A stretch of DNA of 339 nt from Escherichia coli (GTDB lineage: Bacteria > Pseudomonadota > Gammaproteobacteria > Enterobacterales > Enterobacteriaceae): the NCBI RefSeq assembly GCF_003334335.1, contig NZ_QOWQ01000214.1, one strand, 5' to 3'. This document shows, one piece after another, positions 1 to 339 of this stretch (positions are counted from its first letter, which is position 1; every line of letters begins with the position of its first letter). The notes beneath the pieces were generated by a model that saw nothing but the letters and a program-made list of their open reading frames with translations, ran no database searches and was not told where the DNA came from. The translations under genes and the position numbers were made by a program.

Positions 1-339
1 GAATGCGGGTATCCTTCTTGTTCCATGTGGCCGTGGCGATTCGGGATTTACTGCGGGGGCCGAGGGGGCGTTTAACGAAGCGTCGGGAGCGACCGCAGGC
101 TCGTCCCTGTGGGGGGCGGATAAACCGCTGTATCATGACCTGGTCAGCAGAACCCGTGCGGCCCTGAAGAAAAATCCGAAGAACGTGCTGTTATCAGTGA
201 TCTGGATGCAGGGAGAAAAAGATGTCAGTTCGGGGAGACATGCAGAACACAATGCGCTTTTCCTTGCCATGGTAAATCAGTTCCGTACGGAACTGGCAGA
301 TGTGGCAGAGCAGTGTACTGGCGGGACAACGGCCAGCGT
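1..339 (+). CDS. Internal fragment (partial at both ends) of a putative SASA-domain / SGNH-superfamily carbohydrate esterase, sialate 9-O-acetylesterase-like (NanS or prophage NanS-p type). Codons are in phase with position 2 (first full codon 2-4, last full codon 335-337).
   Basis: Seen in sequence: + frame 2 is open for all 112 codons, whereas + frame 1 stops at 73-75 (taa), + frame 3 stops at 165-167 (tga), and each reverse frame has at least two stops (reverse complements of tta/tca at 48, 72, 133, 144, 191, 194, 225, 277). Translation: NAGILLVPCGRGDSGFTAGAEGAFNEASGATAGSSLWGADKPLYHDLVSRTRAALKKNPKNVLLSVIWMQGEKDVSSGRHAEHNALFLAMVNQFRTELADVAEQCTGGTTAS. Established knowledge (recalled, not searched): SASA/CE6-type SGNH esterases have a QGE block III preceded by Trp and hydrophobic residues, matching VLLSVIWMQGEKD at 185-223, and a hydrophobic Gly-containing block II, matching ILLVPCGRGDSGF at 11-49. 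Codon usage is enterobacterial-like. The family assignment is inference from motifs only. Confidence 0.7.

Follow-up and report, generated by a model that had tools for sequence, protein, structure and literature searches.

A 339-nt Escherichia coli sequence very probably derived from within a prophage nanS-p gene, encoding catalytic-core segments of a SASA-family sialate O-acetylesterase

The window and the gene that contains it

The window, meaning the whole 339-nt stretch of DNA that was analysed (GC content 56.6%), corresponds to positions 15001-15339 of locus L001 (NZ_CP075632.1), where it lies within a 1,980-nt coding sequence (CDS; L001:14471-16450). The product of this CDS is WP_062890964.1, a protein of 659 amino acids, and the window covers its residues 178-289. 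The following features were identified in the window.

2..337, plus strand: internal fragment of the nanS-p CDS, 112 codons, residues 178-289 of WP_062890964.1
5..31, plus strand: core beta-strand AGILLVPCG, residues 179-187, leading into block II; AlphaFold2 (AF2) pLDDT block-mean 81-89
32..49, plus strand: SGNH block II RGDSGF, residues 188-193; gap-free alignment to NanS RGGSAF, residues 120-125
50..124, plus strand: NanS-type loop insertion, residues 194-218, joining block II to the helix that follows; sequence variability within the window is highest here
125..169, plus strand: alpha-helix, residues 219-233 (PLYHDLVSRTRAALK); AF2 pLDDT block-mean 86-94
185..223, plus strand: beta-strand, residues 239-246, then SASA block III WMQGEKD, residues 245-251; aligned to NanS MQGEFD, residues 178-183
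239..313, plus strand: helices after block III, residues 257-274 and 276-281; AF2 pLDDT block-mean 85-95 over residues 250-289

As the original prediction had stated, a single frame is open across the window: frame +2 (nt 2-337, 112 codons) has no stops, in contrast to the other five, which have two or three each. Because at least one fully open frame was also present in 9.1% of 20,000 shuffles of the window, the open frame alone is weak evidence, and its significance comes from homology. The 112-aa product matched PHROG 143 (E=1.8e-51, residues 1-111) and Pfam SASA (PF03629, E=1.6e-9), with the Pfam match to the window alone beginning at aa 30, while the 112-aa fragment had no match in NCBIfam. 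No Rfam match was obtained on either strand of the window at E<=1, and a scan of both strands of the window for promoters and terminators found no such site. The remaining open reading frames of the window (54 aa on the plus strand, 45 aa and 34 aa on the reverse strand) were rejected as genes, being unsupported and lying inside a strongly conserved CDS.

The best explanation, with a probability of roughly 92%, is that the window is an internal fragment of a prophage nanS-p gene and encodes part of the catalytic core of a NanS-p sialate O-acetylesterase, a type II SGNH hydrolase of the SASA family. A gene-internal fragment of a SASA/SGNH esterase was what had been predicted, and this is upheld by one continuous 659-aa CDS together with the PHROG 143 and Pfam SASA matches; the reading frame, whose possible interruption in the flanking sequence had been raised, is unbroken through the whole 659-aa CDS in L001. 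The window itself could stem from a truncated or disrupted gene copy that is identical over these bases. Both the gene and the family are already known, the RefSeq annotation being SASA family carbohydrate esterase and the best solved homologues being NanS (3PT5) and NanS-p (6YP6), in agreement with the earlier view that this is a known family and not a novel system.

The Pfam match expected for the fragment (SASA, PF03629) is accompanied in the full gene by DUF1737 and DUF6645, and the protein can be divided as follows.

Residues 1-657: whole protein, PHROG 143 (E=9e-304)
Residues 3-50: DUF1737 (PF08410), Pfam E=2.3e-15
Residues 74-394: esterase core, PDB 3PT5 (NanS/YjhS), E=3.4e-114, 55% identity over 317 residues
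Residues 81-276: SASA, Pfam E=3.9e-9
Residues 445-653: C-terminal domain, PDB 6YP6 (phi24B NanS-p), E=3.6e-48
Residues 508-616: DUF6645 (PF20350), lectin-like jelly-roll, Pfam E=1.6e-32

The DUF1737 region is also matched by PHROG 2036 and PHROG 9498. This three-domain layout, DUF1737-SASA-DUF6645, is the NanS-p architecture of the literature (PMC10462455, PMC8065619). Gene identity, domain architecture and genomic position are thereby established. Conservation is lowest in the inter-domain linkers, residues 51-73 and 395-444 (L001:14621-14689 and 15653-15802), where residues 395-444 have 20% identity to VT2-Sakai.

An AF2 model built from a 40-sequence alignment (A1) had a mean pLDDT of 71.9. 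When this model was used in a fold search, the top PDB entries were 3PT5 (TM 0.85, E=2.7e-29) and 6YP6 (TM 0.90, rmsd 1.8 A), followed by the sialic-acid-binding lectin domain of the V. cholerae sialidase (2W68, E=3e-8) and, further down, by the SASA enzyme 1ZMB (E=6e-6, 17% identity). The likeness to the sialidase lectin concerns the C-terminal domain, residues 445-659 (L001:15803-16447). The modelled protein has the type II SGNH alpha/beta/alpha fold, with a predicted strand-loop-helix pattern in the window at pLDDT 81-95, and the loop insertion at residues 194-218 is modelled for the most part as coil with short bridges. The loops carrying the catalytic Ser (residues 87-102) and His (residues 370-378) have pLDDT <50; therefore, active-site geometry cannot be judged from the model, even though the core around these loops, with the window in it, is confidently predicted.

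DNA 100% identical to the window was found in 31 of the 5,426 complete E. coli genomes, and DNA with 80-90% identity was found in five more, placing the lineage in 36 of the 5,426 genomes (the annotation is 'SASA family carbohydrate esterase' or 'DUF6645 domain-containing protein' at every match listed). Among phages, PhiR5_1 is 100% identical to the window DNA and five PhiR12 phages are 89% identical. A sensitive DNA search recovered homologues in 4,088 of the 5,426 genomes (11,297 places in total, with a maximum of 15 in one genome); in the 5,426 genomes, this search returned nothing with DNA identity to the window between about 70% and 89%, and the best match in EDL933, from which most of the assayed NanS-p enzymes come, is about 70% identical. 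Homologues also occur in 351 phage records. The same separation is seen in the window protein, which shares 89-100% identity with the members of its small cluster and 55-69% with every other homologue retrieved (60% with VT2-Sakai NanS-p), and 52% with NanS.

Chromosomal NanS and prophage NanS-p had both been put forward as candidates, and the gene proved to be the prophage copy. It is extremely unlikely that the window represents the periplasmic, nan-regulon nanS (yjhS) of the chromosome. While the core is homologous to NanS and most of the 4,088 genomes with distant matches carry nanS, the DNA identity of the window to nanS loci is just about 68-70%, and the 100% identical sequences are instead prophage genes with DUF1737 and DUF6645. 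Chromosomal NanS, a single-domain protein encoded in the core-genome nan locus, was excluded on the basis of the extra domains, the prophage location and the 52% protein identity.

Catalytic blocks, the block II substitution and selection

The four sequence blocks compared with NanS, whose positions are those of a structural survey of SGNH hydrolases based on 3PT5 (PMC10792757), are distributed between the window and the rest of the protein as follows.

Block I, outside the window: NanS GQSNA (17-21); query AGQSNS (84-89), with Gln86 and Ser87
Block II, in the window: NanS RGGSAF (120-125); query RGDSGF (188-193)
Block III, in the window: NanS MQGEFD (178-183); query MQGEKD (246-251)
Block V, outside the window: NanS R-x-SHFS (to residue 303); query RKTH-FSS (370-376), with His373

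These block positions are established by the alignments. The original prediction had recognised blocks II and III correctly: ILLVPCGRGDSGF, which spans block II, occupies aa 4-16 (nt 11-49 of the window), WMQGEKD occupies aa 68-74 (nt 203-223), and both blocks align without gaps to those of NanS. WMQGEKD contains the SASA signature (H/M)QGE that replaces the classical GxND. The GQSN catalytic-Ser block that was expected upstream was found at residues 85-88 and is conserved in all homologues covering that motif. In contrast, the DxxH block expected downstream is absent, as there is no Asp at His-3 of block V in the full 659-aa protein, and His373 is found in RKTH-FSS. The corresponding block of NanS is RSSH, with a Ser-His pair that lacks a catalytic Asp (PMC9063846, PMC10792757). 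Since NanS deviates in the same way, the missing DxxH is a trait of the NanS/NanS-p subfamily and is no argument against membership in it.

Statements on the active site draw on secondary sources (PMC9063846, PMC10792757, PMC9487903, PMC8065619). NanS uses Ser19 and His301 without a catalytic Asp, and its oxyanion hole consists of Gly and Gln18, with no block III Asn (PMC9063846); in SASA enzymes, the hydrogen-bond network of the (H)QGE motif holds the Gln of block I in place within the oxyanion hole (PMC9487903). From these relatives we infer the enzymatic activity, substrate and regulation of WP_062890964.1. By homology to NanS, Ser87 (GQSN) would act as nucleophile and His373 (RKTH) as base, in the absence of a catalytic Asp, while the oxyanion would be held by the backbone amides of Ser87 and the block II loop together with the side chain of Gln86, which in turn would be oriented by the Q247-G248-E249 network of block III. 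Because Ser87 and His373 lie outside it, the window would supply two blocks that support the oxyanion hole (II and III) and neither catalytic residue. Expression would depend on Q upon prophage induction, and the enzyme would be freed at lysis; the released enzyme would then strip Neu5,9Ac2 and mucin glycans of their 9-O-acetyl groups, enabling E. coli to catabolise the sialic acid.

Conservation across the window is extensive: in 118 divergent homologues, 38 of the 112 positions are at least 98% invariant, and all 38 residues are retained here. Positions invariant in these homologues include A179, G180, I181, L182, V184 and C186 in the core strand, P219, L220, Y221, D223, R227, T228, A230, A231 and L232 in the helix at residues 219-233, W245, M246, G248, E249 and D251 in block III, and F264, F271, R272 and Q281 after block III. 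In addition, R188 and G189 of block II are invariant, as is Q247 of block III in the 40-sequence alignment A1.

At the canonical position of the oxyanion-hole Gly (NanS Gly122, the third residue of RGGSAF), the window encodes Asp190 (window nt 38-40; L001:15038-15040). Among 125 aligned sequences this position is occupied by Gly in approximately 105, Ala in 11, Asp in 8 and Ser in 1. Seven of the eight sequences with Asp, including the query, belong to the lineage of the window, and the remaining one is an independent sequence (P0014) in which Asp stands in an otherwise consensus background. The lineage reads CGRGDSGF where the family consensus is CCRGGSAF, so that Asp190 is flanked by changes from Cys to Gly (residue 187) and from Ala to Gly (residue 192). 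Since the contribution of block II is a backbone amide, the change from Gly to Asp is probably tolerated.

The dN/dS ratio of the window and core was about 0.14 relative to the PhiR12_1 allele, and 0.09-0.10 relative to VT2-Sakai. These low values establish purifying selection and indicate a constrained protein. Judged from its sequence, WP_062890964.1 is much more likely to be an active esterase than a decayed or re-purposed protein.

A catalytically impaired or re-specialised variant, one that has lost activity or acts on another O-acetylated substrate (other sialate positions, O-antigen or capsule), is an unlikely alternative for this lineage. Such a variant would be compatible with D190 in place of the canonical Gly, with a rare block V (RKTH, found in 4 of the 125 aligned sequences including the query), and with a divergent lectin domain in which Phe replaces Y510 and Y540, two of four aromatic residues for which a carbohydrate-binding role has been proposed in the phi24B C-terminal domain. 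Its appeal is increased by the discreteness of the lineage, as reflected in the DNA identity gap from about 70% to 89%, and by the suggestion that LPS O-acetyl groups are a possible target of NanS-p (PMC8065619). However, the dN/dS of about 0.14 speaks against decay, and the Ser, His, Gln and QGE residues are all intact. The block II position supplies a backbone amide and tolerates Ala, Ser and Asp in the family, with Asp occurring independently in P0014, and the changes from Tyr to Phe retain the aromatic rings. Of the core positions with at least 98% conservation across the family, just three are altered in this protein, each by a conservative change.

Prophage context and association with the virion

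Six genomic contexts were read (L001, L002, L004, L005, L006 and L007, comprising four chromosomes, PhiR5_1 and PhiR12_1), with VT2-Sakai as the reference. In 6/6 contexts nanS-p is found after the Q antiterminator and before the holin-lysozyme cassette, in the order Q, nanS-p and then, directly, DUF1378, DUF826, class II holin, lysozyme, spanins and terminase; in VT2-Sakai the same slot is held by nanS-p after stx2AB. The suggestion that the gene might be prophage cargo is therefore borne out by its place in a lambdoid late operon. Of the neighbours that the original prediction proposed to look for, the lysis genes (holin, lysozyme and spanins) adjoin nanS-p, while no stx gene is present in the five contexts carrying the allele lineage and tail genes are far off. 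L001 has an Ile/Arg/Arg tRNA cluster that is 92% identical to the VT2-Sakai cluster, without stx; such a cluster is typical of Stx phages.

The cargo encoded on the minus strand between Q and the esterase varies (L001:9499-11890, L007:8582-9739), consisting of a 404-aa hypothetical protein and a nucleoid-associated protein in L001 and of a type I restriction endonuclease in L007. Immediately before the esterase gene, whose start codon is at L001:14471, are two strong plus-strand copies of STnc100, an Rfam sRNA family (L001:13557-13762 and 14040-14249). With a gathering score of 47 for the family, these copies reach 141 and 166 bits, and each terminates in the hairpin AGCCCCTCTCCGGAGGGGCT; a weak, sub-threshold copy is located at 13801-13974. 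Approximately 460 bp upstream of nanS-p are conserved in all contexts and are also found downstream of stxB in VT2-Sakai (77%). The arrangement of PasD/STnc100, esterase and holin has already been described in a 2026 preprint (10.64898/2026.05.13.724894). PGAP annotates a 141-nt pseudogene on the minus strand at L001:13576-13716 ('hypothetical protein, internal stop, incomplete'), which is also present in L005, L006 and L007; because it overlaps the first STnc100 copy, it is probably a mis-annotated sRNA region.

A homologue of nanS-p together with DUF1378 and DUF826 is also found inside a Mu-like prophage (L010:5284-7820; NZ_CP074995.1, p8479-1), between a Gin-type recombinase and com-mom, which indicates that the esterase-DUF1378-DUF826 trio is a mobile cassette not confined to lambdoid Q-S regions. 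The record in question, a 167-kb 'plasmid', also has the chromosomal genes yeaW, yeaV and dmlA.

The original prediction could not settle whether the protein is a free enzyme or a phage structural protein. A tail protein is excluded by the Q-to-lysis locus; for the phi24B homologue gp84, a preprint reports attachment to the capsid through DUF1737. The chance that the window encodes the SGNH esterase domain of a tailspike or tail fibre, acting as a receptor-destroying enzyme, is close to negligible. Hints of such a protein are a weak match to PHROG 25867 'tail protein' (E=2.5e-5) and a cyanophage tailspike at rank 30 of the fold search (TM 0.26-0.28, rmsd 20 A), but the match to PHROG 143 is stronger by >45 orders of magnitude. 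Additionally, Pfam finds no tail-attachment or trimeric beta-helix domains, and every lambdoid context read has the gene between Q and the lysis genes, with the terminase downstream of it and the tail genes a long way off. A tailspike or tail-fibre esterase was rejected for its position before the lysis and terminase genes and for the absence of Pfam tail domains.

In the classical view, NanS-p is an enzyme that benefits the lysogen, is induced with the late genes and is released at lysis (PMC8065619, PMC10462455). In phi24B, full-length gp84 (NanS-p) has been reported in fresh virions by a 2026 preprint, in which a DUF1737 hexamer sits on the hexons at the face centres of the T=9 capsid, cleavage subsequently frees the esterase, and SSP motifs (SISSP, PSSPS) are proposed as autoproteolysis sites (10.64898/2026.04.10.717836). 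Neither a sequence search nor a fold search returned a PDB entry of the phi24B DUF1737 capsid complex. A role as a virion component, in which DUF1737 anchors the esterase on capsid hexons until it is cleaved and thereby aids contact between phage and mucus, is compatible with the nanS-p reading of the window and is a minor possibility for this allele. It has the phi24B precedent of gp84 in virions with DUF1737 on hexons (10.64898/2026.04.10.717836), and the allele has a DUF1737 of its own that keeps the aligned Tyr42 'tooth' and Gly54.

Several observations point away from this role, among them the fact that the allele rides with three head modules. These are a 645-aa major capsid protein (L001 and L007), a fusion of ClpP protease and capsid protein (L005) and lambda gpE/gpD (PhiR5_1). 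BLASTP among the capsid proteins of the three modules and the VT2-Sakai/phi24B type detected no similarity (E>0.9), the loci compared being L001:23439-25376, L005:22030-24009, L002:31868-32896 and L008:5643-6857. PhiR5_1 and PhiR12 could be laboratory recombinants, which is a caveat on the lambda-head example; however, the natural chromosomes L001 and L007 versus L005 still represent two unrelated head types. Such variety in head modules is at odds with a general capsid-anchoring role of the lineage's DUF1737. The three-fold axis is the only site decorated in phi24B, and one of the heads accompanying the allele is that of lambda gpE/gpD. A T=7 lattice of the lambda type has no hexon on the three-fold axis. 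In addition, SSP motifs are missing from both linkers, and DUF1737 is only 63% identical to that of VT2-Sakai. The dissimilar head modules, the T=7 geometry and the lack of SSP motifs make capsid decoration by the NanS-p of this lineage doubtful.

The same sequence differences (Gly to Asp in block II, RKTH in block V, two changes from Tyr to Phe and linkers without SSP motifs) may also be read as marks of a distinct NanS-p subtype, although the odds of this are low. Such a subtype might have another O-acetyl-glycan specificity, a DUF1737 that binds several unrelated HK97-fold capsids, or a DUF1737 that has lost capsid binding. If capsid binding has been lost, the role of 'capsid-decorating esterase' seen in phi24B would not be general for NanS-p.

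The lineage in comparison with known esterases

NanS-p lets pathogenic and commensal E. coli use the O-acetylated sialic acids of intestinal mucin, and it is a multi-copy prophage cargo linked to the Shiga-toxin locus. The window adds nothing new to this picture beyond flagging a rare and divergent lineage, which could serve as a natural test of the weight of the block II Gly in NanS-type enzymes, and possibly as a natural test of DUF1737-mediated capsid decoration beyond phi24B-type virions.

The closest known systems are the NanS-p proteins of Stx phages (933W L0105/z1466, VT2-Sakai orf42 and phi24B vb_24B_21/gp84), which have the same three domains, occupy the same slot between Q/stx and the holin, and carry block variants in common with the lineage and with NanS (GQSN, CxRGxS, WMQGE and RxxH-FSS). 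Induction of nanS-p occurs together with stx (PMC10462455), and active Neu5,9Ac2 esterases that support growth include the NanS-p of 933W, seven alleles of EDL933 and five alleles of O104:H4 (PMC8065619). The assayed alleles are about 55-61% identical to the lineage overall and about 60-69% identical in the window. Compared to VT2-Sakai NanS-p, identity is approximately 55% overall, with 63% in DUF1737, 69% in the core, 60% in the window and 46% in the C-terminal domain. The lineage differs from the Stx-phage proteins in that there is no stx upstream (five contexts), Asp replaces the block II Gly, block V is RKTH instead of RASH/RSSH, the linkers are without SSP motifs, and the head modules are of non-phi24B types.

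Like the lineage, chromosomal NanS (3PT5) has a Ser-His pair without Asp and the 'inverted' oxyanion hole of Gln plus QGE that is typical of SASA. In contrast to it, NanS has no DUF1737 and no lectin domain, is encoded by a core-genome gene of the nan regulon, and retains RGGSAF as block II. More distant are the SASA/CE6 enzymes, represented by C. acetobutylicum CAC0529 (1ZMB), A. thaliana At4g34215 (2APJ) and human SIAE, which share PF03629, GQSN and (H)QGE. Unlike the lineage, these enzymes keep the block V Asp and are without NanS-type insertions (e.g. residues 194-218), and several of them act on acetylxylan rather than sialate. Finally, the viral haemagglutinin-esterases (influenza C HEF and coronavirus HE) and the esterase tailspikes of phages (G7C gp63.1 and the Vi phages) are integral attachment proteins of the virion. 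No sequence relationship to either group was detected here, and the likeness is instead a functional analogy to NanS-p, in that these SGNH esterases de-O-acetylate surface glycans (PMC9487903, PMC8065619).
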